A stretch of 64,000 nt of DNA, from IMG/VR virus record IMGVR_UViG_2562617147_000003, positions 10,046 through 74,045 of that record; one strand, 5' to 3'. Under the pieces are notes generated by a model. The model ran no database searches. It had not been told where the DNA came from and worked only from the letters and a program-made list of their open reading frames with translations. This DNA is from a virus (lineage: Duplodnaviria; Caudoviricetes). Each line of letters starts with the position of its first letter. Position 1 is the stretch's first letter. Shown here in pieces: positions 33,654 through 62,439 of the stretch. Both the position numbers and the translations under genes were made by a program.

Positions 33654-33966
33654 GGCTTAATTTTAAACGGCCTTGGGGGCTTTGACAACCACAGAGGGAT
33701 AAAAGGACGGGCCGGGGGATGGAGGTCATCCTCGGCTCGTTTCTATGCCAATGAGGGCAGTATGGCTTGTTGCTGGTGCTTGTTGACGGGGGTTACATAG
33801 GGTTTGTCTTTGATGTTGACGGGGTTGAAATTTATTTACATCCTGGAGTAGCACAAGCTTAATCTGCTTGGTTTTACTAATAATACTTCTTAATCCTGTA
33901 TGATTATTAATTATATTAATGTGTTACTTTCAGTGTGGAAATATCCTACGGAAAGCGAGGTTAAAA

Positions 33967-35523
33967 ATGGATCTGTCTTCGCTGGTAAAAGATTTCAGTA
34001 CAACGCCGTTCCTTTTTGTGGGGTCTGGTTTTTCTCGGAGATACTACGGTCTTCCCGACTGGAAAGGCCTTTTGCAGATTTTTGTCCAAAGAATGAGCAA
34101 CGATGAGTTTGCGTTCAACAAGTATATAAGCAGGGCTGAAGGCCTTATAAATTCTGGAAAAGAAGGAATCCTGCTTGCCGTTACCGCCGGACTCATCATG
34201 CAAGATTTTGACAGACTTTGGTATGAGGATTCTTCTTTCCGTCAGCTGAGGGATTCCTACAAGGTGTTTGTGAAGAATGGGCAGTCACCATTTAAGGTAG
34301 AGGTAGCCCAATATATTGATAACCATTCCGTCCCTGTGGAAACCATGCGAGGCGAGCTGGCAAAATTGAAAGAACTTTCCCGCCGTAGCTTGGCTGGCAT
34401 TATTACCACCAATTATGACTGCCTTCTTGAGATGGAAATGGAGGATTATAAAACCTTCGTTGGGCAAGAAGAACTTATCTTCTCCGCGCTCCAGGGCTGG
34501 GCGGAGATATACAAGATACATGGTTCTGTTACCAATCCGGGTACTATTATCATTACAGATAAAGATTACAGGGGATTTAAGGAATACAGTCCTTATCTTG
34601 CGGCAAAACTTATGACTATATTTATTGAGTTTCCAATTATATTTATTGGATATTCAATAAATGACCCTAATATCCGTATAATATTGGAAGAGCTTGGTAG
34701 ATGTCTTTCGAAGGAAAATCTTCAAAGGCTTCAGCGCCGCTTTATCTATGTGGAGCATAAGAAGGATAAACATGATATAGAATTTTTTGAACATTCCATA
34801 GTGATTCGTGACGACTATATCCATATGACTGGCATTAGAACAGACAATTTTATGGCAATTTATGAAGCACTTGCTGAAAAACGGGCTTCTCTTCCTGCCA
34901 AGCTTATTCGTATGTTCAAACAGGAATTTTATACTTTTGCGCTGACTAGCGAACCTACGGCCAGAATACGGGTAGCTAATATTGATGACGCACGAGTAAG
35001 AGATGAAGATCTCATGATTGCGATTGGGAAAGCGTCGGAGTTTGGTTTGAGGGGATTGTCCGGCATGACGATGAAAGAATGGTATCAACATGTTGTTCTA
35101 CATGATCTTGAATTCTCTGCTGACGACATCCTAACGTATGCTTTTCCTGTCTTGCATAGAAAAAACATGGCCCTGCCGTTGAACATGCTGCTGAACGAGG
35201 CAAACAGGTCATACCCTGAATGCGAAGCAAACAGATGTGCTAGTTTTGATTCTATACTAAACTCAAATTATAGAAAAGGAAGGAATAGAACTATAGAGGT
35301 GAGAAGCATAAATGGAATCATTAAATGTTTTAATAATGATATGCATAAAATCATATATGAGATTCCGTATCTCAAGGAATCAGAGATTGATGTAGAGGAG
35401 TTGGAAGCCTATCTGAGAGGACTCTTTTATCAAAAAGGGCTTTATAATAACCTAGATAACAATAAAAGGTCAGATCTGCACAGAGTGGTACGGATATTTG
35501 ATTATCTCAAATATGGCAGATAA
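33967..35523 (+). CDS. SIR2-like domain protein (candidate anti-phage NADase)
   Basis: FVGSGFS...LPDW, ITTNYD, YKIHGS, PIIFIGYSINDPNI; GAGG RBS; low GC. Confidence 0.85.
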   Translation: MDLSSLVKDFSTTPFLFVGSGFSRRYYGLPDWKGLLQIFVQRMSNDEFAFNKYISRAEGLINSGKEGILLAVTAGLIMQDFDRLWYEDSSFRQLRDSYKVFVKNGQSPFKVEVAQYIDNHSVPVETMRGELAKLKELSRRSLAGIITTNYDCLLEMEMEDYKTFVGQEELIFSALQGWAEIYKIHGSVTNPGTIIITDKDYRGFKEYSPYLAAKLMTIFIEFPIIFIGYSINDPNIRIILEELGRCLSKENLQRLQRRFIYVEHKKDKHDIEFFEHSIVIRDDYIHMTGIRTDNFMAIYEALAEKRASLPAKLIRMFKQEFYTFALTSEPTARIRVANIDDARVRDEDLMIAIGKASEFGLRGLSGMTMKEWYQHVVLHDLEFSADDILTYAFPVLHRKNMALPLNMLLNEANRSYPECEANRCASFDSILNSNYRKGRNRTIEVRSINGIIKCFNNDMHKIIYEIPYLKESEIDVEELEAYLRGLFYQKGLYNNLDNNKRSDLHRVVRIFDYLKYGR

Positions 35524-42861: not shown

Positions 42862-43632
42862 CTATGAAACAGCTCTACATAAATTTTGTCGAGCTCTCGG
42901 GGGAATTTGAATTTGTTCTCTTTTAAAAATAACAGAGCGTAAATCTTGTAAAAAATTATTTACACTTGGCATGGATACCCGCAAAGGGTCTATCTGACCT
43001 CTATTGATAAGCTCACATAGTGTTCTTGCTGAGTAGTCACCAATAACTTCTCTCAAAATTGCTTTTGCATAATGTGGACTCGTATCGCTCCCAGATAATT
43101 GAGTCTCTAATCTTGCACACTTTTGCGTTTGATAATTCTCTTTTAAGGCACATATTAACCATGCTTCAGAAGTTGGACATGGAACAATAGGACAAATATG
43201 AAAAATATTACTGTCTTGCGAAAAACAGGATGCTGTTTTTATTGAATTCCGAATTTCTGTATTTCGTCTAGTATCATGAGAGCGATTATCAGTATCGCGG
43301 AATAAGATAGGAAGTACATCATCACTCTGCTGCTGAGAGAGCGATAATGCCGCCGCCATTAAAGCGCGCGTCCTCTTTCTCCCTTCAGCGGAGTCATTTT
43401 CTCTTCCACTTGAAATTGCCATAGGCACAAGTCGCCTAGATATACCAGCAATATAAGTTCTAGGGGCAAACCAAAATTGTCCAACTGTTAGGGTAGATTC
43501 TATATGGGCTTGAATAAATTTTTCAATAAACAGTGTAATCGGACCAAGAGTCCAGCTACCAGGCGGGCATAAATCAGTGGAAGTCGCACATCCAATGTCT
43601 GTTGGCCCTTCTCCTGTAACCAAGACTAACAT
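42862..43632 (-). CDS. TOPRIM-like (DUF4276/RloB-like) protein
   Basis: LVTGEGPTD, LFRDTD, SEAWLI; start overlaps the ATPase stop. Confidence 0.65.
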   Translation of the reverse strand: MLVLVTGEGPTDIGCATSTDLCPPGSWTLGPITLFIEKFIQAHIESTLTVGQFWFAPRTYIAGISRRLVPMAISSGRENDSAEGRKRTRALMAAALSLSQQQSDDVLPILFRDTDNRSHDTRRNTEIRNSIKTASCFSQDSNIFHICPIVPCPTSEAWLICALKENYQTQKCARLETQLSGSDTSPHYAKAILREVIGDYSARTLCELINRGQIDPLRVSMPSVNNFLQDLRSVIFKREQIQIPPRARQNLCRAVS

Positions 43633-44786
43633 TATTCTAGCCCTTTTTCTTCAAGCGCGCTAATCTCTTTAGAAATTTCAGTTGAACTGGAATCAAGAAA
43701 AGCCTCTCCAGGTCCTAAAAAATCAAGTTTCTCATTGATGCCTGGAAGAGAGAAGAATTTAACTGCTCCTGAATTTCCAGCTTCCTTTCTATACATGAGA
43801 ATCACAGAATCCCGTGCGATCTTCTCATCAATATAATTAAGAATAACAGGATTATGTGTTGTTATAAGTATTTGTTTGTTACAATCCATAATAAAATCTA
43901 TAAGCTTTTTCATTACCTCAGGGTTAAGCCCATTTTCAATTTCATCAAAGATAATAAATGTATCAAGTGTTTCAATTTCTGTAAGAAAGGCAAGTATCCT
44001 TAATAACCCATCGCAGGTGTGTGTAGCCGATACTCTAATAATTCCAGATTCAGACTCTTCAGTAAATTCAATATCTGTCCAGCCAGCTCTCCGGGTTATT
44101 GCACGTGCCGAATGGAACCATGGGTAAATATCTTTTAGTCTAGAATTAATTTTATCTTTTTGTGCTGATGAAAGGCCAGAAAAGACACCTGCAACACGTT
44201 CTCCTCCACGCCCAATACCTCCAGAGGTACGCCGAGATCTGGCTCGAAGCTGTAAGGAATTGAGTGTGTCAAAAGAATGCATTCCTCTTATATACGAGGA
44301 AAATTTATTAGCTGTATTCCCATTTTTGATAAAATTTTGTTTTAAATGAGCTAAGATAGATCCTTCGAATTCATTTACAATTGGATATATGTTATTATTA
44401 CAAGTAACTTTTCCTTCAGAAACACTGAGAATGTGTTCACCATCAATCAGCATTTTTTCTGTTATACATCTTCTGAGTATTGTATTGTATGATGCTTCCC
44501 ATGAAATGTGTTTTTTATCAAAACAACCTTCTAATTTAAGTGAGATCGTGCGCATTTTTTTTGATGACATAATATCAAGCGGATTCCAGCCTCGACTATT
44601 AAACCAGCTTGTGAGATTTCCCCGAAAAATTGCGCCAATGAAATCAAGGCACTGGAGTACAGTGGATTTTCCGCTACCATTATTACCAATTAAAAAAAGT
44701 ATATTCCCATCTTTTGGAAAAGGAAGTGAAAAATCATTCAGCGATTTAAATTTATCAATATGAAGAGCGGTAATTCTGTCCATCAT
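43632..44786 (-). CDS. ABC-type AAA_21 ATPase
   Basis: IGNNGSGKST, TCDGLLR signature-like, IIFDEIENGLNP, ITTHNP; low GC. Confidence 0.85.
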   Translation of the reverse strand: MMDRITALHIDKFKSLNDFSLPFPKDGNILFLIGNNGSGKSTVLQCLDFIGAIFRGNLTSWFNSRGWNPLDIMSSKKMRTISLKLEGCFDKKHISWEASYNTILRRCITEKMLIDGEHILSVSEGKVTCNNNIYPIVNEFEGSILAHLKQNFIKNGNTANKFSSYIRGMHSFDTLNSLQLRARSRRTSGGIGRGGERVAGVFSGLSSAQKDKINSRLKDIYPWFHSARAITRRAGWTDIEFTEESESGIIRVSATHTCDGLLRILAFLTEIETLDTFIIFDEIENGLNPEVMKKLIDFIMDCNKQILITTHNPVILNYIDEKIARDSVILMYRKEAGNSGAVKFFSLPGINEKLDFLGPGEAFLDSSSTEISKEISALEEKGLE

Positions 44787-45811: not shown

Positions 45812-46972
45812 TACTGCATCATGCGGCGGCGCTCATCCAGATATAGGGCATGGTTATATGCGCGCCGCACACTGTCGCGTTCCCCCGTGGGCGAGTTGTG
45901 CCTCGATAATGTCCGACCTGTACCCTTGTTCGTTGAGCAGAGTAGAAGCCATGCTCCGGAAACCATGAATTGTCATCTCCCCCTTAGTGTAGCCCATACG
46001 CCGCAGCGCATTGAGCAGGCCCATATTCGACATGCAACGGGTCATGGTGAAGGGGGAGGGAAACAGCAGCAGGGATCGCCCCGAATATTCGCGTAGGGAT
46101 TCAAGCAGTTCTAATACTTGCCGGGCCAGCGGCACAATATGGGGGCGGCGCATCTTCATGCGCCCGGCGGGGATGAGCCACTCAGCCCTGGCAATGTCTA
46201 TCTCTGCCCACGCGGCCCCGCGCAACTCAACGGAGCGGACGAAAAGGTAGGGGAGGGTTTGCAACGCATGGCGGGTTACAGGGTCGCCCTGATAGCCGTC
46301 GATGGCTTGGAGCAGCCGTCCTATGGCTGCCGGGTCGGTTATCGTTGCGTGGTGCCTGTCTTTGGGGATTGGGGGCAAAGCTTCGTGCAGGCCCGCCGCA
46401 ACGTCGAATTTTGCATATCCGACAATCCGAGCATATCTGCAAATTTTCCCCATAAGTTGGGTCAACCTATGAGACATTTCAACAGCACCCCGGCTCTGTG
46501 TGTGCCGGACCGCTTCAAGGATATGAGCAGGCTCCAGGGTTGCAAAGGGGATGCTTCCAATGAACGGGAAGATATGATTTTCCAACCGTGAGAGCAGTTG
46601 TTTTTTATAGCCCTCGGTCAATTGTGTTGTCTTTGTCGCAAACCACTCGCGCGCCACGGTTTCAAATGTCCTGGTTTTTTCTTCCGCAATGACAACGGCG
46701 GCGGCTTTGACTTCCTTTTTGTGCTCGCTAGGGTCTACGCCGTGGGCCAGCAAGGTTCGCGCCTCATCCCGCCGCTTGCGGGCCTCTTTCAAAGAAATGT
46801 CTGGATACACGCCTAGGGCCAACGTTTTTTGCTTGCCGCCGAAGCGATATGCCAAGCGCCAATACTTCCCGCCCTTGGCGTAGACATGGATATAACGCCC
46901 GCCGCCGTCCGCCTTTTTCAGTGTGCGGCCCGTGGCCTTCAATCCCCTCAACAGCGTGTCTGACAGTGCCAT
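45811..46972 (-). pseudogene. int: P4-type tyrosine integrase with frameshift before the catalytic Tyr
   Basis: DGGGRY...KYWRLAYRFGGKQKTLALGVYP; HGFRSMAST; extra G at 45882-45886 puts ERDSVRRAYNH out of frame; TAA at 45811-45813. Confidence 0.85.
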
Positions 46973-47151
46973 ATCGCCCTTGTTGGTACATTGATGGTTG
47001 GTATGTGCGGCTTCCGTTTTATGCCAACACAGGTACCAACGAAAAGGCGGCTGTCAACGTACTTAGGCGGAAGCAGGCGAACCCTTAAAAAGCGAAAATC
47101 CGCTCAGCACAAAGGCTTTGCGGACTTTCATGAACTCTTATGAACCTTGTT

Positions 47152-47216
47152 TGGCGGGGACGCATAGGAGTCGAACCTACCGCAGACCGTAAAGCCTGCC
47201 ACCGGTTTTGAAGACC
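47152..47216 (-). tRNA. selC: 3' fragment of tRNA-Sec (att site), not an intact gene
   Basis: GGT-CT-TCA-AA-ACC anticodon loop, long variable arm, GGTTCGACTCC T-arm, CCA end; 5' acceptor and D arm absent. Confidence 0.8.
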
Positions 47217-47288
47217 TATCACCCCGCAGCATAAAGGAAGACTTGTTTTTTCCGTACACCTCCAGAGGAAAAACCTTTTGGAGGCGTT

Positions 47289-48152
47289 ATGCTTACGTTA
47301 GATGAAGCCTGGAACAGCTATCTTGCGACCCGCCACCTGACCCCATACGGGTATTTGACGGATATGAGCCGTTACCGTGTCCATCTGCAAACTTATTGGC
47401 ACGGAAAAACTCTAACGTCAATAAAAACCCTGGATATTCAATTTTATACAAACCACCTGTTTGAGAAAGGACTTTCTCCGCAAACCGTCAGGCTATGCCT
47501 TGGCCAGTTGCGGCGCATCATGCGTCGCGCTCATCGGTTAGGGCTACTGGAAGGCCAACTGCCATATTTTGAAATGCCCCCAGCCGACAGCGTGCGTTAC
47601 CGTTATCTTGAGCCGGAGGAGGCCACTAGTCTTTTGCAGGTGTTACGCAATCTCTCTCAGCTTTGGCATGACATAGCCTTGCTTTCTCTTAATACAGGAA
47701 TGCGGGCGAGTGAGATTTTTTCTTTGCGTGGAGCCAATATAAATGTTCCACAAGAGAATATTATTTTGCATAAAACAAAAAATCTCAAGCAGCGTATTGT
47801 TCCATTGAATAGTCCATCCCTAAACATTGTAAAAAAATATCATAGAAAAAATGCAGAGCTTCTTTTTCATCAGGAAGAAAGCTCTAATAAGCAATTTGTA
47901 AAAATATCAAAAAAATTCAGAAGAGCAGTTGAGATAAGCGGATTAAATGAAGGCATTATAGATAATCGTTATCGTGTTGTTTTTCATACTCTACGTCATA
48001 CATTTGCAAGTTGGCTTGTGCAGCGTGGAGTATCATTGCAGGTTGTCAGCAATCTTTTAGGACACAGCTCTGTTCGCGTAACTGAACGCTATGCGCATCT
48101 TGCGCCGGATCAAGGCCGAAATGCTCTTAAATTTTTGCCTTGTATTTCATAG
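47289..48152 (+). CDS. Tyrosine recombinase/integrase
   Basis: LNTGMRASEI, HKTKN, FHTLRHTFASW, LLGHSS...TERYAH; catalytic residues intact. Confidence 0.9.
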   Translation: MLTLDEAWNSYLATRHLTPYGYLTDMSRYRVHLQTYWHGKTLTSIKTLDIQFYTNHLFEKGLSPQTVRLCLGQLRRIMRRAHRLGLLEGQLPYFEMPPADSVRYRYLEPEEATSLLQVLRNLSQLWHDIALLSLNTGMRASEIFSLRGANINVPQENIILHKTKNLKQRIVPLNSPSLNIVKKYHRKNAELLFHQEESSNKQFVKISKKFRRAVEISGLNEGIIDNRYRVVFHTLRHTFASWLVQRGVSLQVVSNLLGHSSVRVTERYAHLAPDQGRNALKFLPCIS

Positions 48153-48274
48153 TATTACATATCATCAATGCAAAAAATCGCAACCTTCTGCAACTTTCTG
48201 CAATTGTGCTGACAGCTTTTGCGGAAATTTGTTAATAGTTGCAAAGATAATCAATGCAGAAGAAGACAGGACAG

Positions 48275-48320
48275 GTAAAGTAACGTCACTTTTCAAGTGA
48301 CGACTTTACGTCCTGCCCCC
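48275..48320 (+). promoter_or_regulatory. Putative oriT (MOBP-type nic)
   Basis: IR GTAAAGTAACGTCACTT/AAGTGACGACTTTAC followed by GTCCTG^CCCC, resembling RP4 ATCCTG^C. Confidence 0.65.
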
Positions 48321-48382
48321 TCAACGCCGGGGGTGGCTTGCTTATTCGCCTTCGGCTCAACGCTAAAAACAGGGAGAAAATC

Positions 48383-49264
48383 ATGGAAGACAGCCAGACC
48401 AACGAACAGGAAATCACCACGCAACCCATTGAAAACATTGTTGAGATTAACGACGGCAAGATGTTCACCACGTCGCTGACCGTCGCCAATGCCTTCGAGA
48501 AGGAGCACAAAAACGTGCTTCAGGCGATTGAAAATTTGGAGTGCTCGAAGGAGTTTCTAGAGCTGAATTTTCAGCTCTGTAATTATTCCAGTGAGTTAGC
48601 ACCAGATGGGCGAAAATATTCCTTTTATCAGATCACCCGCGACGGCTTCGCCTTCCTGGCCATGGGCTTCACGGGCAAGAAGGCGGCCTGGAAAGAGAAG
48701 TTCCTGGAGGCGTTTAACGCGATGGAAGCGGCGCTGCTGGCCAGACGGCCGGAAGAACCGAGGCCCATTCTGGAAGAAGAGGAGAAAGCCATCTCCCCCA
48801 AGGAGCGTAGTCGTTTCTTCAGGCCCAGGCGAAAAATATCCAAGAGCGACGCTAAAGCCGTGCATGGTTTGCTCCATATGGAGTCATTTGTTCAAGAAAT
48901 GACCTGGGATGAAGCTGTGGCGCGGTTTTGCGAGAAAATGCATATTGAAAGGATTGAGGATTTGCCCCAATCCGATTTCATGGAGGCCATTACCAATACT
49001 TTTAAAAAGCTTTTTTTCGTGCACACCTGGGAGCGTCAAGAGAGCAATCCGGCTTCAGTGGAGTTGAGGGATGCTTTTCAGGGGATGCTGACTTTCTGGC
49101 GTCAGGTGACCGACTTCTCGGAGACAGATATTCGCAACTATATTCTTAACCGTTGTGGTGTGGATAGCCTGGACGACATTGTGAGCGAACGGGACACCCT
49201 CAAGGCCCTTTTCGTTCTTTGGGGAGGGATTGCCAATCATACCTTGGAAGCGCGGGTCTGGTAG
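48383..49264 (+). CDS. Rha-family phage regulatory protein
   Basis: TTSLTVANAFEKEHKNVLQAIENL, YQITRDGFAFLAMGFTGKKA..WK..F..AFN.ME. Confidence 0.85.
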   Translation: MEDSQTNEQEITTQPIENIVEINDGKMFTTSLTVANAFEKEHKNVLQAIENLECSKEFLELNFQLCNYSSELAPDGRKYSFYQITRDGFAFLAMGFTGKKAAWKEKFLEAFNAMEAALLARRPEEPRPILEEEEKAISPKERSRFFRPRRKISKSDAKAVHGLLHMESFVQEMTWDEAVARFCEKMHIERIEDLPQSDFMEAITNTFKKLFFVHTWERQESNPASVELRDAFQGMLTFWRQVTDFSETDIRNYILNRCGVDSLDDIVSERDTLKALFVLWGGIANHTLEARVW

Positions 49265-49265
49265 C

Positions 49266-49592
49266 ATGCCGGAAGAAAAGAAGCCCAAACGCACGGAACG
49301 GCTACAAGCCTATGTGACGCCGGAGGAGTTCACTCTTATCATGGAGTCCAGCGACCGGGCCGGGCTGAGCATGTCGGAGTTCGCCCGGCGTGTGTGTCTG
49401 GGCTTCCGGGTGGAGAGCCGGGAGGACCAGCAGGCCCGGCGGGAGCTGCTGAAGGTCAACGCCGATCTGGGGCGGCTGGGCGGCCTGCTCAAGCAGGCTC
49501 TGGCCACCGGCCATAAGGAGCAGATTTACGGACTGCTCCATAAGATTGATCAGCTTCAGGCAAGCCTGAAGGCCAGGATCAGGGCGCTATGA
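49266..49592 (+). CDS. mobC: Relaxosome accessory protein (MobC/TraJ-like RHH)
   Basis: AYVTPEE...AGLSMSEFARR, ELLKVNADLGRLGGLLK. Confidence 0.8.
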   Translation: MPEEKKPKRTERLQAYVTPEEFTLIMESSDRAGLSMSEFARRVCLGFRVESREDQQARRELLKVNADLGRLGGLLKQALATGHKEQIYGLLHKIDQLQASLKARIRAL

Positions 49593-51424
49593 TCAGCAAG
49601 CGGATTCCGTGTGCCCCTAAAAATGATAACTACGCCCGGCTGGCAAATTACATTGCCGCCGGGCGTGAACATGACATGCAGCAGGAGTTTAGCGATGGAC
49701 AACGGCACTATGATCCGCAGCGCCACTTTGAAACAGGTCAAGGCATTGCCGGAAACCGCATGCGTCGGCTGTCCGAATGCCGTCTGGCATCTTACTCGCA
49801 AGGACAGGAAAGAGGAGCTGCGGATTTTCTGCCTGCTGATGCACGCCTTGATCGACGCGCCGATGGCGGCGTGCGACGGCACGCTGATCTTCCCGAAGAT
49901 GTAAAACCTGAAAAATGCCTCATGAGCTGGTGCGCCGGGTGCTGGGCCGGGGACGATTACGAGCTGGCCATCCAGGAAGTGGCCGATACCCAGGCGCTTA
50001 ATACGCGCACCACCCAGGAGAAAACCTATCATCTGATTGTGAGTTTCCGGCCGGAAGATGAAACCAGGCTGACGCCGGAAACATTCAAGGCCATTGAGGA
50101 ACGCTTTGCCCTGGCTTTGGGGCTATCGGAACATCAGCGGCATTGCGGCGTCCACGTCAACACGGAAAACATGCACATGCACGTCGCTTATAATCTGATC
50201 CACCCGGAAAAGCTGACGCGCGTGGAGCCCTGGCGGGACTATATCAAGCGCGACAAGCTCTGCCGGGAGTTGGAGAAGGAATACGGCCTTGTCATCGACA
50301 ACGGCCGGGATAAGGCCCAGGAACAGGGCCTTGGTGAAAGGGCCGCAACCGTGGAGGCGCACACCGGCCGACAGTCTTTTGAGGGCTACGCGCGCGACCA
50401 GGGCGAGGCCATTCTGGCCATATTGGAAAATGCGCGTTCCTGGGAGGACGTGCATTGCGCCTTTGCCCGGCATGGCCTGGAGCTGAAGCCGCGCGGGGCC
50501 GGACTTGTGGTCAAGGACCGACATGGGCGGCACATGGCCAAGGCCAGCGCCGTGCATCGGGATTTATCCCGGAAGAAGCTGGAAGCCCGGTTTGGAGCCT
50601 TCCAGCCATCCAGGGGAGCAATGCCGGAAAGCGAACGACGCTACGGCGCTGATCCGCTTCAGAAGGCACCGAACCGGAATCAGCTCTGGCAGGAGTTCCA
50701 GGAACAGCGCCAGGTCCAAAAAATAGGCCTGGAAGATATCCGCCGGAAGTGGGAGCAACAGCGCATGGACTTGCAGCGCAGGCCCATAGCGCGCAGGACC
50801 AGGGCTAATCTTATGAAAATGGTCCGCCAGTATGAAGCGGAAGAAATCCACGCCGCGCGCGTGAACCAGGGCGCGGGCAACTGGCTTGATTTTTTGCGGC
50901 AGAAAGCCGCCCAAGGCGACGAAACCGCCCTGGCCGTCTTACGCTCCAGAAAAGAGGAAATCGCGCCGGAGATAACGCAGAGTCGCATGCAGGCCCGCGC
51001 GGCCTATCTGGCCAGCAAGACTGCAATCCTGGAGAATGCCGAGCTTTCCACCAAAACAAAAAACCGCCTCATCAGCGTCGCACTGATGGAGAGCCTGGCC
51101 AGTGGAACCACGGCCAGGATCAGCAAGCTCGGCAGTATCATCTATACGCTCCCCGATGGCGGGAAAATTTGCGACACCGGGCGCAGCATCAGCTTCAGCG
51201 ACGGGGCCAGGGAAACGGCCCTGGATTATATGACTGCCAAGTGGAGCGTAAAGCGAAGGCGGGTGTCTCTGGACAGGGACACAGGCGATCTCGTGTACAC
51301 GCTGGACAGTGGCCAGAAGATCTATGAGCGGAAGGGGCGGAATGTCTTTGAACGGCCCGCCGTTGTCCACCGGCAGCGCCAGTTGGAGCGGGAGCGGCCC
51401 AGGAACCAGGGTATGGAGCGGTAA
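49589..51424 (+). CDS. traI: MOBP relaxase (TraI-like)
   Basis: LANYI (catalytic Tyr region), YHLIVSFRPED, HQRHCGVHVNTENMHMHVAYN. Confidence 0.9.
   Translation: MISKRIPCAPKNDNYARLANYIAAGREHDMQQEFSDGQRHYDPQRHFETGQGIAGNRMRRLSECRLASYSQGQERGAADFLPADARLDRRADGGVRRHADLPEDVKPEKCLMSWCAGCWAGDDYELAIQEVADTQALNTRTTQEKTYHLIVSFRPEDETRLTPETFKAIEERFALALGLSEHQRHCGVHVNTENMHMHVAYNLIHPEKLTRVEPWRDYIKRDKLCRELEKEYGLVIDNGRDKAQEQGLGERAATVEAHTGRQSFEGYARDQGEAILAILENARSWEDVHCAFARHGLELKPRGAGLVVKDRHGRHMAKASAVHRDLSRKKLEARFGAFQPSRGAMPESERRYGADPLQKAPNRNQLWQEFQEQRQVQKIGLEDIRRKWEQQRMDLQRRPIARRTRANLMKMVRQYEAEEIHAARVNQGAGNWLDFLRQKAAQGDETALAVLRSRKEEIAPEITQSRMQARAAYLASKTAILENAELSTKTKNRLISVALMESLASGTTARISKLGSIIYTLPDGGKICDTGRSISFSDGARETALDYMTAKWSVKRRRVSLDRDTGDLVYTLDSGQKIYERKGRNVFERPAVVHRQRQLERERPRNQGMER
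49695..49904 (+). CDS. traH: TraH-like protein nested in an alternative frame inside traI
   Basis: GGAG RBS; SATL...PETACVGCPNAVW...FCLLM...CDG matches the RP4 TraH Cys pattern. Confidence 0.75.
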   Translation: MDNGTMIRSATLKQVKALPETACVGCPNAVWHLTRKDRKEELRIFCLLMHALIDAPMAACDGTLIFPKM

Positions 51425-51821: not shown

Positions 51822-51934
51822 AACATCTTTTCTGCATTGCCGGGCGTGGGTTTGCCTGCTAGGCTGACCCGGCACGGCTACCCTCTGGCCTGAAAGCGTC
51901 GGCACGGCGCAAACGGAAAAAGGAGGGCACAGCC

Positions 51935-52006
51935 ATGCGGAAACTTGTTTTCGCTCTGCTTGTCGCTGTGGCCCTGGTCCTCTTACTGACGTCTGACGCC
52001 AGATAA
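51935..52006 (+). CDS. Type I toxin-like 23-aa peptide 1 (MRKLVFALLVAVALVLLLTSDAR)
   Basis: AGGAGG RBS, upstream anti-SD, structured 5' and 3' flanks and terminator (module ~51870-52140). Confidence 0.7.
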   Translation: MRKLVFALLVAVALVLLLTSDAR

Positions 52007-52304
52007 GAGTTGACCCCGGCCCATTAGCGGTGGGCCGGGGTCGAAAAAAGGAAACCGTGTCGGTAGCCGTGCACGGGGGCGCTAACCGCGCCGTGCCAGC
52101 CCCGGTATCTGTCCCCACAGATGCCGGGGTTCCCTTTTTAGATAAGGCAGTAGCGGGTGAATGTCCAGCCCGGCCTAGCGGGCTCAGACCCAATTTATAT
52201 TGTGCAATATAAATTCAACAGGCAATAGACTTGGCAATGTAGCCGCCCTTTAGTTGATCCGTACCCACCTTGTGCCTGTCCAGGGTGGGCAAGACACGTT
52301 AGCC

Positions 52305-52652
52305 TACCCGGAACTGTTCGTTCTTATGGGCAGCCAGGTGCCGGATTTGAGGGGGCTGTTTCTGCGTGGGCACGGGGGCAAGAGCGCTGCTCTGGGAGTC
52401 CAGCAGGGCGACGCTATACGGAATATTACTGGTGGCTTTGTCCCAGGCAATCAATATGCAAACGCGGGCATTAAAAACACTTCAGGGATCTTTCGACCTG
52501 GAGGAGCCTTTGGACGCAATGACTTCCGGGAATCAGGAGCAAACAGCTCCCCGGATGAAGTTATTCTCGACGCATCCCTACAAGTGCCCACAGCCGAGGA
52601 AACTCGCCCGGTGAATCTGGCTGTGCGCTACCTGATCCGCGCCAAGCCCTGA
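52305..52652 (+). other. Silent C-terminal cassette A of the tail-collar adhesin gene
   Basis: Homology starts exactly at TACCCGGAACTGT (YPEL); no signal peptide or RBS; ends RPVNLAVRYLIRAKP. Confidence 0.85.
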
Positions 52653-52819
52653 TGCTTGCCAAACAGGCATGGAGACGTTATCTAAAAAGGGAACCCCGGC
52701 CCCTGCGCGAACAGGAACCGGGGCTGGCACGGCGCGGTTAGCGCCCCCGTGCACGACTACCGCAGCGTTTTTACCTACGGCCCCGTATCAGGTGTAAGCT
52801 GATACGGGGCCAGCCTCAT

Positions 52820-52891
52820 CTAAGGCCGACTATCGCCCCGCAACAGCAGGGCGAGAAGTACCAGCAACACCAAGACGGCAAAGCGTCTCAT
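52820..52891 (-). CDS. Type I toxin-like 23-aa peptide 2 (MRRFAVLVLLVLLALLLRGDSRP)
   Basis: AAGGGGGT RBS with complementary upstream ACCCCCTT; module ~52681-52957. Confidence 0.7.
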   Translation of the reverse strand: MRRFAVLVLLVLLALLLRGDSRP

Positions 52892-53015
52892 GTGATGGCA
52901 CCCCCTTTGATAGTTTGCGCCGTGCCGGGCGCAGATCAGGAAGGGGGTAGCCGTGCCCGTTCCTTATATCCACATTCATCCCGCCCGGCAACGCTTTGCC
53001 GAGCAACACGGCGCG

Positions 53016-53363
53016 TACCCGGAACTGTCCGCGCTTCTCGGCGGCCAAGTGCCGGATTTGAGGGGCTTGTTCCTGCGTGGCCACGGGGGGAACAGCGCTG
53101 AATTAGGCTCACCTCAGGGGCATGCCATGCGCGACATATCTTCAGCGGGCAGCATCAGCGTAGGGTTCGGAGGGTATCTGACAGGAAATGGGATTTTTAA
53201 GCCTGTTGGTAGTCATGGCGTGGTTGTCATTAGGGGCTCGTGGGACGGCAATTGGGGGAGCACTGCTTATGGACTTGATCTTTCTGCCGGTGGTGTACCT
53301 GTGGCCAATGAGGTTCGGCCTGACAACCAAGCGGTACGATTTTTAGTCCGCGCCCGCCCGTGA
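53016..53363 (+). other. Silent C-terminal cassette B
   Basis: Starts at TACCCGGAACTGT; VPDLRGLFLRG; ends RPDNQAVRFLVRARP. Confidence 0.85.
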
Positions 53364-53545
53364 ATTATGCTCTCCGCGTGCCACCCGGATTTTTGGTCAG
53401 AGTCCGGGTGACTCGCAGGAGTAACACGAATGACCTTGCAGTCGCTGATCCGGAACCAGGTCGGCCGATTCGCTAACTCGCTGAAATTTAAGATGGTGAG
53501 ATTTTAGGCCAGTAGCACGAAATTACAAAATCCCATCCCATTTCC

Positions 53546-53872
53546 TTATGGCCGGGCGCGGACAAGGTACCTAACCGCCTGATTGGCAGGGCGATTTTCT
53601 TCAGCGGTCGGAACGACACGAGAGAGGTCAAAGCCGACGCCATTACCGGACCAAGTACCGTAAGAGCTGCGAATATCTTCAGCGCATCCGCCCGTGCGAT
53701 AGAAAACCCCACCGGCTGAAGCGGAACCGTGTTGGCCGAAACTGCCGGTTATATTTCGTATGGCGTCACCTTGCCGGACGCCCAGCGCTGCCGAGTCGCC
53801 CCCGTGACCACGAAGAAACAGCCCCCGCAGATCGGGCACCTGGCCGCCCACAACCGCGAACAGTTCCGGGTA
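53546..53872 (-). other. Silent C-terminal cassette C
   Basis: Starts at TACCCGGAACTGT on the minus strand (53860-53872); ends RPANQAVRYLVRARP. Confidence 0.85.
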
Positions 53873-53999
53873 CGCGCGGGGCTGACTGGCAAAGCGTTGC
53901 CGGGCGAGAAGAATCCAGATATAAGAAGCGGACACGGCTACCCCCTATGCGTCGGCACGGCGCAATTTCCCGGCAACGCCGGTAAAGGGGGTATCAGCC

Positions 54000-54071
54000 A
54001 TGTTGCGTCTGCTTTTGACCACGCTCGTCGCGCTGATACTCGTCCTGCTGCTGGCTTCTTCAGCCAGATAG
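54000..54071 (+). CDS. Type I toxin-like 23-aa peptide 3 (MLRLLLTTLVALILVLLLASSAR)
   Basis: AGGGGGTA RBS with complementary upstream TACCCCCT; module ~53930-54210. Confidence 0.7.
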   Translation: MLRLLLTTLVALILVLLLASSAR

Positions 54072-54237
54072 CAGTTGACCCCGTATCAGGTGACGCTGAT
54101 ACGGGGTCGAAATAAGACTGTAACCCGGTAGCCGTGTAGCAAAGGGGCGCTCACGCGCCGTGCCAGCCCCGGTTCCTGTTCCCGCAGGGGCCGGGGTTCC
54201 CTTTTTAAATAACGCCTCCATACCTGTTTGGCAAGCA

Positions 54238-54807
54238 TTAGGGGTGGGCGCGGATCAGGTAGCGCACAGCCTGATTAACAGGGCGGTTTTCCCCGGCTGT
54301 GGGTACAACTCGGGAAGCGTCAAATATAACTGCCGCTCCAAACTCTCGTTTTTCATTTGCCGCACCATAGGGAGCATAACCAGCATCAGCAAATGCCCCA
54401 TCATAACCGTTCCACGCAAATTGATCATCAAATCCAAATTTTCCAGTAATATTCCGAATTGCGTCCCCCTGCTGAACGCCCAGGGCAGCGCTGTTTCCGC
54501 CGTGCCCACGCAGAAACAGCCCACGCAGATCGGGCACCTGGCCGCCGAGAACCGCAAACAGTTCCGGGTAAACTGACGGTGATATGTTTTGTCCGTTACA
54601 TTCCAGCCAGTTATCCATATCTTCCGGATTCTGGCCAACTGGCCACGCGAGGATCATTCCGACCGGGACGCCGCCGGAGCCTTTGGCCTTAACTTCCACC
54701 CTCGTGGGATCAAAGCTGGTGGCGTCAGCGCCGTGGATCGGAGAGGACGCCAGAAGGGGCAGGAGGAAAAACAGCGCTGCAAAAAGGCTTAAAATGCGTT
54801 TTTTCAT
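54238..54807 (-). CDS. Secreted phage-tail-collar-domain protein (expression locus; currently carries cassette D)
   Basis: Signal peptide, GVPVGMILAWP...WLECNGQ...YPELF...VPDLRGLFLRG; site at 54558-54570. Confidence 0.85.
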   Translation of the reverse strand: MKKRILSLFAALFFLLPLLASSPIHGADATSFDPTRVEVKAKGSGGVPVGMILAWPVGQNPEDMDNWLECNGQNISPSVYPELFAVLGGQVPDLRGLFLRGHGGNSAALGVQQGDAIRNITGKFGFDDQFAWNGYDGAFADAGYAPYGAANEKREFGAAVIFDASRVVPTAGENRPVNQAVRYLIRAHP

Positions 54808-57887: not shown

Positions 57888-59051
57888 TTAGTCCTTCTTG
57901 CTCTGACTTTTGGCTGCACTTTCCACGCGCGCCCTTTCAATCTGATCCCGTAGCGACGAAGCGACACTGCCCTGGCGCAGGCCCTTCTCGTGATTGGCTT
58001 CTCGGCTGGCATTCCAGAGATTGCTGGCCGTGCCCCTGACCATGCCGCCCACGCCTTCCGCGCCTTGGGCCTTGGCAGCTTGGGCGGCCCGGCCTATATT
58101 GGCGACGCCGGAGCCAGCGGCCATACCAACGCCAGCAAGCCCGGCCCCCATAGCCATGACCGTGGAGGTCAGGGCCTGGCCGGAGCTGACGTGCGAGCCC
58201 TGGATGATTCCGGCCACAACATCGGGAAGGGTTTTGACGAGGCAATAAAAGATTACGCAGAAGCAAAGAGTGACGCCGATCTCTCCCCACGTAACCGTTT
58301 CCACCATCTTAAGTTTCATGATAAAGTTTATACCAACACCCATAACAAGTTCCATTGTCATGAGCTTAAACGCTACCGCGAAAACATAGCGCAGGGCGTT
58401 GATTGCATAATCTCTAAGGAATGACGTTGCCCCAAGGCCAAGAAGGACGGACGAAGCGCACATGGCGATGATGCACTCACATTTGATAAGAATTATTTGT
58501 AGTGTTATGAGTGCAAAACAAAATAATATTGCAATTCCGGCCAATATGTATGTTAGCGACTTCGCCGGAGACCAGCCGTCACACAATGCAAATAAACTCT
58601 GTGCTAATTCGAGGCCAACAGTAAACGGTTTGTCAGAGGCATCAACGAGGTTTGTCGCCTCACCTGCTATAGACTTTAACCCATTAATGATATTCCAAGT
58701 CCAAGTGTGATAATTATTGATAACTGCAAGGAAAAATCCAGCAGCAAGCAGTACAAAGCAAAAATTCTTGATCGTTTCGCGTATGTCAGAAGACCCAAGA
58801 GACATTTTTACACCAAGCCAAGCCACTTCAAGCACTGCACACCAGTAAAAAATGACCTTTGCATACTTGAGCATAACATTTTCATATTTTGATAATCCCT
58901 CATAAAATGTTGGGACAATTTCTGATATGACAGTTCCGCCTTGTGGGGCTGCATAAATTGTACTACTATCAATAAAAATTAAAGAACAAAGGAGTGATAC
59001 TATGAAAAAAAATATTCTTATAATTTGTGTATTTGTATTTTTATTGGCCAT
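57888..59051 (-). CDS. trbL: P-type conjugative transfer protein TrbL (VirB6)
   Basis: Multi-TM, LGLGATSFLRDYAINALRY, LVKTLPDVVAGIIQG, Gly/Ala-rich tail. Confidence 0.88.
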   Translation of the reverse strand: MANKNTNTQIIRIFFFIVSLLCSLIFIDSSTIYAAPQGGTVISEIVPTFYEGLSKYENVMLKYAKVIFYWCAVLEVAWLGVKMSLGSSDIRETIKNFCFVLLAAGFFLAVINNYHTWTWNIINGLKSIAGEATNLVDASDKPFTVGLELAQSLFALCDGWSPAKSLTYILAGIAILFCFALITLQIILIKCECIIAMCASSVLLGLGATSFLRDYAINALRYVFAVAFKLMTMELVMGVGINFIMKLKMVETVTWGEIGVTLCFCVIFYCLVKTLPDVVAGIIQGSHVSSGQALTSTVMAMGAGLAGVGMAAGSGVANIGRAAQAAKAQGAEGVGGMVRGTASNLWNASREANHEKGLRQGSVASSLRDQIERARVESAAKSQSKKD

Positions 59052-59379
59052 ATCAAATACTTCCTTCGCATTTAATTTATATGGTTGGTGGAAATCTGAC
59101 GAATGCAATTCTTCTCTTCGAATTATTAAATTTGATGAAGGCTATTTTCATAAAGATAAATATAAAAATCCATATAAGATATTAAAATCATCAAATAATA
59201 TGATAGAAGCTTTATTTGAATTTACTCCAACATACAGTGATAAAGTGGTTATAAAAATAAACAACGATGACAATATCACAATTTCATATCCATCAGAAGA
59301 TACATTTACATATAGACGCATTACCGATGACACTTCCATCTCCAAAGAAAAAGCAATGGAAATGGCTGGAAAAAACTAG
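59002..59379 (+). CDS. AT-rich exported protein between trbJ and trbL, opposite strand
   Basis: AAGGAG RBS, signal peptide. Confidence 0.65.
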   Translation: MKKNILIICVFVFLLAISNTSFAFNLYGWWKSDECNSSLRIIKFDEGYFHKDKYKNPYKILKSSNNMIEALFEFTPTYSDKVVIKINNDDNITISYPSEDTFTYRRITDDTSISKEKAMEMAGKN

Positions 59380-60176
59380 AAAGGGTCAGGATACGACGTT
59401 GTATCCAGCTTCCCAACGCCGTCTATCATTTGCCGATGTAGTTCCTGCTCCATTTGATCTTCCTTCTCTGCCTTCACTTGGCCCGCCAAGTCCGATTGAA
59501 CCTTAGTCGCTATGAGTTCGCGGAGTTGGCGGGCTTCCTGTATCTGGAGCGCCGCAAGCTGATTTCCGGCCATGAGCGCCTTTTGCTGGCCGTCAGGCGA
59601 GGAAAGCAGCTCGTTCATGTAGGCTTCCAGTTCGCCGGATTCTTCCAGGTCTTTGAGCTGGCTTCCTGAGAGCTGGAAAGTCGCCCTGGTGGACTCGTCC
59701 ACCCGGCGGCTCCAACTGTCCCAATTGGTCCGGTAGGTAGCACCGCCCTGGGAAAGCATGTCCCTAGGCAGACCGGCCAGTTGCTTGAACTCGTCCTGGG
59801 TCTGGTAAAGAGCGTCATAGACGTTTCCCAGCCCGGCGACATCGTTGCGCAGGGTGTTCAGCGCGCCCGTGATCTGGCCGACCTTGGAGAGTTCGGAAGA
59901 AATCTTCCGAATAATATTCGCGGGCAGCATGACGGTATTCTGCACCATATTGGTGTACTGCTCGATGTTCTGTTGCACCATCTGAAGTTGGGCGGCGGTC
60001 TGTTCAATAGCCTCGTCATATTCCTTGAGCAGCGTTTTGAGCTGTTCAAGGCTGGTGGCCTTCTCAATGGCCTGCGTCACTCTCGTGCTGCAATTGGTGC
60101 AGTATACCGTTCCGGCATAGGCGTTCAGAGGAGCGGAAAGAGTCAGAAGACAAATCATCGACAAAGAAATTCTCAT
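59376..60176 (-). CDS. trbJ: P-type conjugative transfer protein TrbJ (VirB5)
   Basis: AGTVYCTNCS, QLQMVQQNIEQYTNMVQNT, PDGQQKALMAGNQLA. Confidence 0.9.
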   Translation of the reverse strand: MRISLSMICLLTLSAPLNAYAGTVYCTNCSTRVTQAIEKATSLEQLKTLLKEYDEAIEQTAAQLQMVQQNIEQYTNMVQNTVMLPANIIRKISSELSKVGQITGALNTLRNDVAGLGNVYDALYQTQDEFKQLAGLPRDMLSQGGATYRTNWDSWSRRVDESTRATFQLSGSQLKDLEESGELEAYMNELLSSPDGQQKALMAGNQLAALQIQEARQLRELIATKVQSDLAGQVKAEKEDQMEQELHRQMIDGVGKLDTTSYPDPF

Positions 60177-60216
60177 GGCTTTTCTTCCTGGAGTTGCCAA
60201 CGGTTCAGGCCGCCGC

Positions 60217-60975
60217 CTACAGAATATCCGCCTGCTCAACGCAGGAAAGAAGCTGGTTCCAGTACCTTTTCAGCCGGGCCTTCACCGCGATGGAAGTGGA
60301 ACTGCCGTTGATCCCCGCCTCGAAACTTTGCCGCTTGGCCAGAAGGTCTTCCAGGTCTTTGCCGATCAGCGCCCTGTTGCCTTCCGGCAGCCGGATCAGG
60401 GCATGGAACTGGTGCGAGTGATCCTTGTAGATTTTGAAGTCCTCGAAGCTCATTCCGTCCATGGAAATCTCCCCAAAGAAGGAATTGAGCCAGATCACCA
60501 GTGGTGAATCGGGGAAGCCCCGTACCAGCTGGACAAGTCCTTGGATCGTATCGCCCAGGGCCTGGCCGCCGGTGATGATGGAATGGAAAAAGACCGTGTG
60601 CCCGGCATCGGCCAGGAGCGACAGCACATCATTTTCTTGCAGATACGCGCCCAGGGCGATGAAGGAGGAAGCGCCGTTGTCAACGATGACGTGCGAACCT
60701 TCCGGGGCGTTTACAAGCGCCTCAAGCAGGACATCGAACTTGCGGGCGTCAATGTTCCCGTCCCTCATGATGGCGAGCGTGGTGACATTGAACTCCTTGA
60801 AAGCCGCCAGCGTGGCATTGACCGGGTCCGTGTCGTAGGCGATCACGTCTTTGCCGAAATGCCGCAACGACTGGTACAGAAAGGACGCGACCATGGATTT
60901 TCCCACGCCGCCTTTGCCCTGCAAAATGAAGTGGACTGTCGCCACCGCGTACTCCTTGTGTTCAAAAAATTTCAT
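60217..60975 (-). CDS. traL: TraL-like P-loop protein
   Basis: HFILQGKGGVGKS, DTDPVNAT, VDNGASSF, ITGGQAL.DT, VIWLN. Confidence 0.88.
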   Translation of the reverse strand: MKFFEHKEYAVATVHFILQGKGGVGKSMVASFLYQSLRHFGKDVIAYDTDPVNATLAAFKEFNVTTLAIMRDGNIDARKFDVLLEALVNAPEGSHVIVDNGASSFIALGAYLQENDVLSLLADAGHTVFFHSIITGGQALGDTIQGLVQLVRGFPDSPLVIWLNSFFGEISMDGMSFEDFKIYKDHSHQFHALIRLPEGNRALIGKDLEDLLAKRQSFEAGINGSSTSIAVKARLKRYWNQLLSCVEQADIL

Positions 60976-61402
60976 CAGGATCGACTTTCACCTGACCAAA
61001 GGGGGCTTTTTTTTCCACCCCTGCTTTTCTGGGGCCGCTCCTGGCCGGGGCGCTTTCTTGCTCTGCCGTGGCCGGGGGGCTGGCGGTCTTGTCGCTGGAG
61101 GCGGCCCCGGAAGGCTGTTTAGCTGGCAAAGACGCCGCATTGTCTTCAGCGCTCTTTGAGCTTTCAGGGGCCGGAGCTGACAAGTCAGAGTGCTCCGTAT
61201 ATTTTTCTCTTCTTTGCTCCATTCTTGTGAATAGTCCGAGTGCATACCGCCTGAATGTGTCATAAGACATTGTAATTTTATGTGACTCATAGAAAATTCT
61301 GTAGGCGCTACGGAAGGAATGTCCTTTTTGAAAGAGGCCTTCCGCATTTTTTTCAATAGCCAAATATTCAATACGTGCTTTTCTAGAAGTCGGCATTTTC
61401 AT
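60962..61402 (-). CDS. traK: TraK-like oriT-binding protein
   Basis: ARIEYLA...GHS...KITMSYDTFRRY resembles IncP TraK. Confidence 0.7.
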   Translation of the reverse strand: MKMPTSRKARIEYLAIEKNAEGLFQKGHSFRSAYRIFYESHKITMSYDTFRRYALGLFTRMEQRREKYTEHSDLSAPAPESSKSAEDNAASLPAKQPSGAASSDKTASPPATAEQESAPARSGPRKAGVEKKAPFGQVKVDPDEIF

Positions 61403-62439
61403 TGAGCTATTGCTGTTTCTCTCATAGGAGTGAAATTCCAGTCTTTGAGAAAGGCCAAAACTTCCTTACTTGTATCTGCTTGTTCCGCATGCGGCGCTTT
61501 GCCCTGGCGGTGGAGCAGGGACCACAGACCCCAGGCCGGGCCGCGCTTGCGCTGGCCATCGGCAAAGCGCGAGAGAAAAGCCTCAAAGACTGGCCGAGCA
61601 GCCTCCAGAGCCGGATCAGTCCGGTGCTGATCCTCCAGGCGCTTCATGCAGCGCCGGACCTCTTGGGCTTGCTCCGGCGTCATGGCCTGCTTATCCACTG
61701 GCGATGCCGAGGCCTCGGGCGCTTCATCCAGCCAGCGCCGCCCACGGAGCCAGTTGACGAGGTACGGCACAAAGCGGCCATGTTCCCGGTTCCAGCTCGT
61801 CGAGGACCGGAAGCGATCCAGGGCCGCCAGCAAGGAGTCCAGGGCCGGAAGCTCGCCACGCCGCCAGAGCTGATGCCATACGGCGCGGGCCTGTTCTTTG
61901 GCTTCATTGCGCGGGTAGGTCGCGCAGAGCCGTTCAAAAGCTGAATTACTCAGAAGGAAATCCCCCCCACCCCCACGGCCTTTTCGCTCCACTATTCCGC
62001 TGCGTGACGTTTCATGTTGTTTTGACGTTGGGGGGTAGGGGGGAAATTTTTCTAGATTTTTCCTAGAATTATTTATGTAGCCAAAGTTTGCCTGGGGGTG
62101 GTCAAAGTTTGACCCCCTTCTGACCGGAGCGGCGGAGGCAGTGGACGCCGCCCCGGTACGGGGCCGCAGCAGCACATAGGTGGAGGACCGGCAGGCCGCG
62201 CGGCGGATGGTCAACAGCCGGGCGCGCACCAGCTCGCCCAGCCAGTTTTTGATGCTTGAAACGCAGTAGCCCAACTCCTGGGCCAGGAATCTATGAGATG
62301 GCCAACAATGGTCTTTATCGGAAGCGTGATTACAAAGAAGCGCGTAAAGCATCTTTGCACCGGGAGAAATGTTTTCCCGCAGCACAAATGCCGGTAGAAT
62401 AGGGCCGGTGATCTGACCCTTGGGGGTGAAAGTTTCCAT
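61399..62439 (-). CDS. Replication initiator (N-terminal HTH_36, phage O/DnaD-like)
   Basis: ISPGAKMLYALLC...CWPSHRFLAQELG; YPRNEAK..A...W; FVPYLVNWLRGRRW. Confidence 0.8.
   Translation of the reverse strand: METFTPKGQITGPILPAFVLRENISPGAKMLYALLCNHASDKDHCWPSHRFLAQELGYCVSSIKNWLGELVRARLLTIRRAACRSSTYVLLRPRTGAASTASAAPVRRGSNFDHPQANFGYINNSRKNLEKFPPYPPTSKQHETSRSGIVERKGRGGGGDFLLSNSAFERLCATYPRNEAKEQARAVWHQLWRRGELPALDSLLAALDRFRSSTSWNREHGRFVPYLVNWLRGRRWLDEAPEASASPVDKQAMTPEQAQEVRRCMKRLEDQHRTDPALEAARPVFEAFLSRFADGQRKRGPAWGLWSLLHRQGKAPHAEQADTSKEVLAFLKDWNFTPMRETAIAQ

Follow-up and report, generated by a model that had tools for sequence, protein, structure and literature searches.

Type I toxin-antitoxin-like modules with a covarying RNA structure and a candidate antisense promoter in a provirus and in gut Desulfovibrionaceae

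The DNA analyzed here, hereafter the window, is a stretch of 64,000 nucleotides (nt) from a virus (Duplodnaviria; Caudoviricetes), namely, positions 10,046 to 74,045 of IMG/VR record IMGVR_UViG_2562617147_000003, which is classed as a provirus. Our subject is a set of three small modules, A, B, and C, that a first-pass annotation had described as type I toxin-like units. Each was said to possess an open reading frame (ORF) for a peptide of 23 amino acids (aa), 5' motifs with complementary 3' motifs, a GC-rich hairpin after the stop codon, and an intrinsic terminator, and all of these parts are present in all three modules (Table 1). The sequences CACGGCTACC, GGCACGGCGC, GGTAGCCGTG (GGTAGTCGTG in module B), and GCGCCGTGCC occur in the modules; we refer to the 5' motifs as m1 (GCACGGCTACC) and m2 (GGCACGGCGC) and to their 3' complements as m1' (GGTAGCCGTGC) and m2' (GCGCCGTGCC). 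The hairpin just 3' of the stop codon measures 12 to 14 bp in each case. Compared with dinucleotide shuffles, the modules fold with z scores of -6.2 (A), -7.7 (B), and -8.4 (C), and 0 of 200 shuffles were equally stable.

Table 1. Parts of modules A, B, and C and neighboring features, in window coordinates (SD, Shine-Dalgarno sequence)
Feature	Position	Strand	Details
Module A sense promoter	51837..51865	+	-35 TTGCCG 51837-51842, 17-nt spacer, -10 TAGGCT 51860-51865; read from the sequence
Module A toxin-like mRNA	51871..52139	+	covariance-model score 275 bits
Module A mRNA parts	m1 51872-51882; anti-SD 51881-51886; m2 51901-51910; SD 51922-51927; m1' 52062-52072; m2' 52088-52097	+	
Module A ORF, 23 aa	51935..52006	+	MRKLVFALLVAVALVLLLTSDAR
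Module A GC-rich hairpin after stop codon	52012..52043	+	
Module A intrinsic terminator of sense RNA	52098..52139	+	
Module A convergent antisense promoter	52139..52167	-	-35 TGGACA = complement of 52162-52167; -10 TATCTA = complement of 52139-52144
Module B sense promoter	52963..52991	-	-35 TTGCCG = complement of 52986-52991; -10 TATAAG = complement of 52963-52968
Module B toxin-like mRNA	52684..52957	-	m1 52956-52946; m2 52926-52917; SD 52907-52900
Module B 3' parts	hairpin after stop 52811-52779; m1' 52761-52751; m2' 52736-52727; terminator 52725-52684	-	
Module B ORF, 23 aa	52820..52891	-	MRRFAVLVLLVLLALLLRGDSRP; second peptide subtype
Module B convergent antisense promoter	52656..52684	+	-35 TTGCCA 52656-52661, 17-nt spacer, -10 TATCTA 52679-52684
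Module C sense promoter	53897..53925	+	-35 TTGCCG 53897-53902; -10 TATAAG 53920-53925
Module C toxin-like mRNA	53931..54206	+	m1 53932-53942; m2 53954-53963; SD 53987-53991
Module C 3' parts	hairpin after stop 54077-54107; m1' 54127-54137; m2' 54155-54164; terminator 54165-54206	+	
Module C ORF, 23 aa	54000..54071	+	MLRLLLTTLVALILVLLLASSAR
Module C convergent antisense promoter	54206..54234	-	-35 TTGCCA = complement of 54229-54234; -10 TATTTA = complement of 54206-54211
Full-length secreted phage-tail-collar-domain gene	54238-54807	-	PF07484, E 9e-11; convergent with module C
Three N-terminally truncated tail-collar cassettes	52254-52652; 52953-53363; 53935-53546	+; +; -	interleaved with the modules
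Conserved 5' segments of tail-collar gene and cassettes	52297-52443; 53013-53138; 53734-53875; 54434-54578		
Element genes	45854-51424 and 57888-62439		two tyrosine recombinases, Rha-like regulator, MobA/TraI relaxase, TrbL/VirB6, ParA, HTH_36 protein
MobA/TraI relaxase	49589-51424		
SIR2-like protein; AAA_21 (AbiEii-type) ATPase and partner ORF	33919-35523 and 42862-44786		low-GC islands of the element

The modules are members of a family with over 70 distinct copies. A scan for the exact 3' motif in one genome per species yielded a first collection of 36 loci, and a profile search together with a covariance model (R1) then recovered copies that do not carry the exact motif. Within 73 of the 75 distinct full-length copies, an ATG-initiated hydrophobic ORF of 22 to 26 codons is intact, preceded by a strong Shine-Dalgarno (SD) sequence 6 to 9 nt before the ATG. 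The copies encode 65 distinct peptides that share a common design, in which a methionine and 1 to 3 basic residues are followed by a hydrophobic stretch (about 16 residues) and a short polar tail of the ASDAR or RGDSRP type. For pairs that are up to 25% divergent, differences at the first, second, and third codon positions number 561, 302, and 616, respectively, and U occupies 56% of second codon positions. The module is a coding mRNA with a conserved ORF. Searches of Pfam and NCBIfam with E values up to 10 gave no match for the peptides, including to Hok, Ldr, Ibs, TisB, and Fst, and returned only sub-threshold, signal-peptide-like noise; likewise, Rfam searches of either strand with E values up to 10 produced noise and no family match. 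The suggestion that this family might be new is thus upheld against the known RNA and peptide families in these databases.

Covariation provides evidence for an elaborate RNA architecture. The first-pass annotation had proposed a covariance model as a check. Compensatory changes across the resulting alignment support the terminator, the post-stop hairpin, a helix between the 5' and 3' ends, and a second helix that crosses the latter. Covariation was counted on 81 distinct rows aligned to R1, in which 96.4% of cells pair, versus 82.2% in shuffles and 35 to 41% in slid controls. Doubly changed cells number 528 (136 in shuffles), a count that none of the 500 shuffles attains. Compensatory changes were found at 11 of 11 pairs in m1:m1', 12 of 12 in the hairpin after the stop codon, all 14 pairs of the terminator, 8 of 10 in m2:m2', and 4 of 5 in a local 3' hairpin, H3' (GGCGC:GCGCC). 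Because the m2:m2' helix lies outside the model, the alignment was not fitted to it; its variants include GGUGCGGCGC/GCGCCGCACC, AGCACGGUGC/GCACCGUGCU, and GACACGGCGC/GCGCCGUGUC.

The order of these elements along the RNA is m1, m2, m1', m2', and so the two long-range helices cross, which implies a pseudoknot or alternative states. Moreover, H3' competes with m2:m2' for the m2' bases, and each of the two covaries; when pairings that exclude each other both covary, a switch is indicated. A 5' local hairpin arm also changes in step in several subfamilies, as seen directly in the sequences; column-wise counting was dropped for this hairpin because the two subfamilies pair in different registers. 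Among the minimum free energy (MFE) structures of single sequences, those of 52 of 73 copies contain m1:m1' and those of 7 contain m2:m2', and the two duplexes are each worth approximately -18 to -20 kcal/mol. The most divergent subfamily (L138:501-761 and L139:501-765) displays a variation on this theme, with a 5' end (CCUCCUUAAAGC) that can pair with either the SD (AAGGAGG) or the 3' element UUUUAAGGAGG; here, the anti-SD itself is the pairing partner of the 3' domain.

The predicted sequestration of the SD is likewise backed by covariation. The covariation between SD and anti-SD that had been noticed in the three copies extends to the family as a whole, since the duplex of each copy with its own partner averages -12.5 kcal/mol, versus -10.9 kcal/mol when partners are permuted between copies, and 0 of 300 permutations reach the observed energy. 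The partners are CCCTC or CCCTT with GGAGG and CCCCC or CCCCT with GGGGG. Both m1:m1' and the full anti-SD helix use the four bases at the end of m1 (UACC or UGCC). When these bases are left out, the anti-SD helix has a mean length of 4.7 bp and a mean energy of -5.5 kcal/mol; when they are included, the means are 7.7 bp and -12.2 kcal/mol, a gain of at least 2 bp in 63 of 73 copies. The 5'-3' pairing that the first-pass annotation had described is borne out by covariation. It draws on four bases that the full anti-SD helix also needs, however, and so its probable effect is to loosen the sequestration of the SD, not to reinforce it. By prediction, the SD is unpaired with a probability of 0.18 in the full-length RNA, 0.08 after truncation at the post-stop hairpin, and 0.11 with the 3' domain blocked.

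Aligned flanks revealed two promoters, of which a strict sigma-70 scan that required T at position 6 of the -10 element had missed even the one on the sense strand. The sense promoter, TTGNNN-N17-TANNNN (TATAAG-like), ends 5 to 6 nt before the start of the module in 67 of 69 copies. A second, convergent promoter is located just past the terminator on the opposite strand, approximately 130 nt beyond the ORF, in 72 of the 73 distinct copies with enough flank. It consists of a -35 element (TTGCCA or TTGACA), a spacer (17 nt in 71 of 72), and a -10 element (TATNTA) that abuts the complement of the T-run. The -35 element is conserved at 80 to 90% (60% at its fourth base), as are four of the six -10 positions, compared with 30 to 60% for the spacer, which is the pattern expected of a real promoter. 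This promoter is retained by copies between housekeeping genes where no co-directional gene comes next, by the most divergent subfamily, and by L128, a copy whose ORF has been lost. No conserved antisense promoter was found inside the module itself. An independent sense-strand promoter for the 3' domain was also considered and rejected, given its short and poorly conserved spacer.

The first-pass annotation could not locate an antitoxin RNA. The convergent promoter now places a candidate, which is a prediction from that promoter. Since the two promoters converge, the antisense RNA would cover the 3' domain of the mRNA. It would also be identical to the 5' untranslated region (UTR) motifs, not complementary to them, and hence could pair only with the 3' domain.

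Taken together, these observations lend in silico support to the possibility, raised at first pass, of a new type I toxin-antitoxin family: the ORF and SD are conserved, the structure covaries, and the copies are numerous, often in tandem, and in some cases on mobile elements. We consider it reasonably probable that each module is a type I toxin-antitoxin-like locus, with a putatively toxic peptide, made of two convergent transcription units that operate as an antisense-gated conformational switch. Direct support for this proposal comes from the RNA architecture, its covariation, the conservation of the ORF, and both promoters. The first unit would use a sigma-70-type promoter to produce an mRNA of about 270 nt for a peptide of 22 to 26 residues, with a basic N terminus, a hydrophobic helix, and a short polar tail. 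The second would start directly past the mRNA terminator and produce the candidate antitoxin, an antisense RNA spanning the terminator, m2', H3', and m1' and possibly reaching the hairpin after the stop codon.

In the proposed mechanism, the mRNA would itself be the switch, with m1 and m2 of the 5' UTR pairing crosswise with m1' and m2' and with m2 and m2' alternatively forming local hairpins. During transcription, an anti-SD helix of about 8 bp would close the SD. Once the 3' domain is finished, m1' would capture m1 (and m2' possibly m2), removing the four common bases (UACC) from the anti-SD helix and leaving 4 to 5 bp that ribosomes could open. The antisense RNA, which would carry exact copies of m1 and m2, is predicted to form a perfect duplex with the 3' domain and to displace the 5' UTR, such that the long anti-SD helix would reform and translation would be blocked; the duplex would probably also mark the mRNA for RNase III. 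Loss of a short-lived antisense RNA would then allow the peptide to be made and the membrane to be damaged. Of these steps, we infer the toxicity of the peptide, the antisense transcript with its 3' end, and the direction of the switch.

Several points weigh against this proposal. Short hydrophobic peptides can be harmless regulators. Also, no canonical terminator for the antisense RNA was found on its strand, and the hairpin after the stop codon has no U-tract 3' of it in either direction. All states are predicted to keep most of the SD paired and hence differ only modestly, and the comparison between them uses nested-structure thermodynamics, which ignores the crossing helix. Further, the exact-match pattern behind the first 36 loci inflates the apparent invariance of the 3' domain, a bias that the copies later recovered by the covariance model correct only in part. 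Finally, the contigs that serve as RNA evidence are unstranded and come from one metatranscriptome; they indicate presence in the library and carry no strand, ends, or levels, and low or missing coverage of the flanks was given no weight. They cover module C at 53935-54148, with one mismatch each, and a module B-like variant at 52732-52852. In one contig of the library, 52812 is directly followed by 52897, and the 84 nt passed over match the ORF of module B nearly exactly; this contig could derive from a variant copy or another organism.

The same 5'-3' helix might serve a different purpose, as in hok- and aapA1-type systems, where it would keep the full-length mRNA inert until slow 3' processing to the post-stop hairpin activates it, and where the antisense RNA would mainly trigger decay. 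We regard this alternative as unlikely, even though the helix is strongly supported, forms part of the MFE structure in 52 of 73 copies, and stacks on the short anti-SD helix in the MFE folds of modules B and C, and even though the very stable post-stop hairpin, followed by an A-rich stretch, makes a plausible stop for processing. Removal or blocking of the 3' domain is predicted to tighten the SD (from an unpaired probability of 0.18 to 0.08 or 0.11), not to free it, and release of m1 lengthens the anti-SD helix from about 4.7 to 7.7 bp. Moreover, the antisense promoter is aimed at the same 3' domain that processing would take off. A hok-like lock fits the predicted energetics less well than the antisense-gated switch does.

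The distribution of the family bears on another alternative, namely, that the product is a nontoxic small membrane peptide, regulatory or accessory, controlled by a cis-antisense RNA and mRNA structure with no addiction or killing. The architecture described above would apply equally to such a peptide, and many copies lie between housekeeping genes. We have seen the family only in some gut Desulfovibrionaceae (Desulfovibrio, Bilophila, and Mailhella). Of 151 species sampled from the Desulfovibrionaceae, 12 carry it, usually in more than one copy; among 150 other sampled genomes of the phylum, the search found none. Source labels agree, in that 35 of the 36 initial loci are assigned to gut Desulfovibrio, Mailhella, Bilophila, or unclassified Desulfovibrionaceae/Deltaproteobacteria. 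The remaining locus (L059) lies on a contig labeled as an uncultured Akkermansia metagenome-assembled genome (MAG); this copy is nearly identical to Mailhella copies, and thus the contig was probably mis-binned.

Copy numbers are high, with 6 to 30 matches in each of five source genomes and, at the upper end, about 17 full-length copies in one Bilophila MAG. Desulfovibrio sp. ZJ369 contains a tandem array of six modules (G001:C56:7364-10196; L097, L092, L085, and L072), and tandem pairs with spacers of 140 to 255 nt occur in other genomes. Approximately 25 of 65 distinct copies abut tail-collar cassettes, in convergent orientation and 34 to 40 nt after the cassette stop codon, an arrangement that recurs across genomes. 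The rest are situated between ordinary genes (flgE, adhE, lon, pepA, or a citrate transporter) or beside integrases. Copies that have lost the promoter, SD, and ORF and retain the 3' domain were also observed (L128:501-768, L044:7421-7616, L050:1665-1839, and L062:2192-2350), of which L128 retains the antisense promoter too; such degenerate copies could be antitoxin-only remnants. High copy number, tandem arrays, and a patchy spread within one bacterial family typify type I toxins, as do the association with mobile elements and shufflon cassettes, the degenerate copies, and the multilayered silencing of translation, and on these grounds a nontoxic peptide seems improbable to us. That the modules are structured noncoding RNAs or mobile repeats (MITE-like elements or terminator/insulator sequences) with an incidental ORF is very improbable, despite the extensive conserved RNA structure, the dispersed copies, and a 3' domain that is the best-conserved part, considering that 73 of 75 copies, with 65 different peptides among them, preserve the ORF, its length, its ATG, and a strong SD, that substitutions spare codon position 2, and that the anti-SD covaries with the SD; nor were terminal inverted repeats noticed, though no systematic search for them was made.

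The genetic setting of modules A to C gives further context for the type I toxin-antitoxin-like switch. The end of the window around the modules resembles an integrative, mobilizable, or conjugative element, and low-GC islands of this element encode a SIR2-like protein and an AAA_21 (AbiEii-type) ATPase with its partner, which are likely defense genes. Within 52254-54807, the full-length tail-collar gene and three headless cassettes share conserved 5' segments of 116 to 142 nt in direct and inverted orientations, an arrangement that is shufflon-like. DNA contigs of isolate runs contain alternative joints, for instance, one from 52956 to 53851 on opposite strands in two runs. An inverted repeat of 178 nt (52559-52736 and 54154-54331, 88% complementary) takes in a cassette's C-terminal end together with the antisense promoter and the 3' domain of a module; cassette end and convergent module are thus duplicated as one unit. 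Exact-motif scans of IMG/VR returned only chance matches inside GC-rich coding sequence, a blastn search of the region against plasmids and phages gave nothing relevant, and 20 IMG/VR loci that encode tail-collar relatives contained no module.

A more speculative version of the switch, which is conceivable though we hold it only tentatively, treats the 5' UTR as a mimic of the module's own antitoxin. The 3' domain would then be a cis-activating clamp needed for translation, and the antisense RNA would outcompete the 5' UTR for this clamp, thereby repressing at a distance. Three- and four-way covariation would maintain this three-partner strand-exchange switch, and copies between the cassettes of the tail-collar shufflon may penalize the deletion of segments.

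The family is abundant in hosts that include the human gut pathobiont Bilophila and gut Desulfovibrio, and its unusually rich covariation record makes the proposed competition between 5' UTR, 3' domain, and antisense RNA directly testable. Should the peptide be toxic, the family would matter for how stably mobile elements and shufflons are maintained, for persistence or phage defense among gut sulfate reducers, and for annotating small genes that are overlooked by current pipelines. In the searched literature, type I toxin-antitoxin systems and Desulfovibrio or Bilophila appear together only in passing co-mentions, and no system is described for Desulfovibrionaceae. Similarly, neither the T1TAdb paper nor Fozo et al. 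(2010) includes a type I system from Desulfovibrionaceae, and the latter does not mention Desulfovibrio or Bilophila.

Among known systems, the first-pass annotation had likened the modules to hok, ldr, and aapA mRNAs, and this likeness stands for SD sequestration and 5'-3' pairing but not for the candidate antisense RNA, which would overlap the 3' end and not, as in those systems, the 5' leader. With hok/sok of plasmid R1 and AapA1/IsoA1 of Helicobacter pylori, the modules share pairing of the 5' end with a 3' element (tac/fbi in hok and m1:m1' here, as an analogy of structure only), alternative or metastable local hairpins, a sequestered SD, multiple copies, and mobile elements. Unlike these systems, the modules have an antisense promoter at the 3' end, not opposite the 5' leader, a 5'-3' helix that is predicted to loosen the SD, not to lock it, and no relevant Rfam match; in contrast to hok, they also lack a Hok_Gef domain (PF01848; Hok is about 50 aa and the module peptide 23 aa) and a mok-like leader ORF.

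A 5' structure that sequesters the SD and, as predicted for the modules, convergent RNAs that meet at their 3' ends are features in common with Fst/RNAII (par of pAD1) and SprA1/SprA1AS. However, the par antitoxin pairs with the 5' region of its mRNA through oppositely transcribed direct repeats, whereas the antisense RNA of the modules could pair only with the 3' domain, and the module peptides have no Fst-family match. Ibs/Sib of enterobacteria resembles the modules in its very short hydrophobic peptide (18 to 19 aa for Ibs) and multicopy locus, but Sib covers the whole ibs ORF, and the modules match neither the Rfam Sib (QUAD) family at E values up to 10 nor the peptide.

The closest counterpart is bsrG/SR4 of Bacillus subtilis, with its relatives txpA/RatA, bsrE/SR5, and yonT/SR6, in which a small hydrophobic peptide mRNA is met by a convergent antisense RNA at its 3' end, a layout that is predicted here from the position and orientation of the promoter. 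Binding of SR4 at the 3' end of bsrG mRNA lengthens the SD-sequestering helix from 4 to 8 bp (PMC3834814), and a similar change, from 4 to 5 bp to about 8 bp, is predicted for the modules. The modules nevertheless have no sequence, Rfam, or Pfam/NCBIfam similarity to the bsrG/SR4 and txpA/RatA group, reside in a Gram-negative host, and encode a peptide of 23 aa versus 38 for BsrG. Two helices that covary and cross each other, moreover, link their 5' UTR to the predicted target of the antisense RNA, and so the antisense RNA would compete with the 5' UTR. The 3'-overlapping antisense RNAs listed in the T1TAdb paper all come from Gram-positive families, while those it lists for Gram-negative families are either 5' nonoverlapping or fully within the mRNA (PMC8594479). 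The family described here would extend the 3'-overlapping layout to a Gram-negative lineage; it is undescribed and looks like a new RNA-controlled type I toxin-antitoxin-like system whose closest layout is that of the Gram-positive 3'-overlap families.

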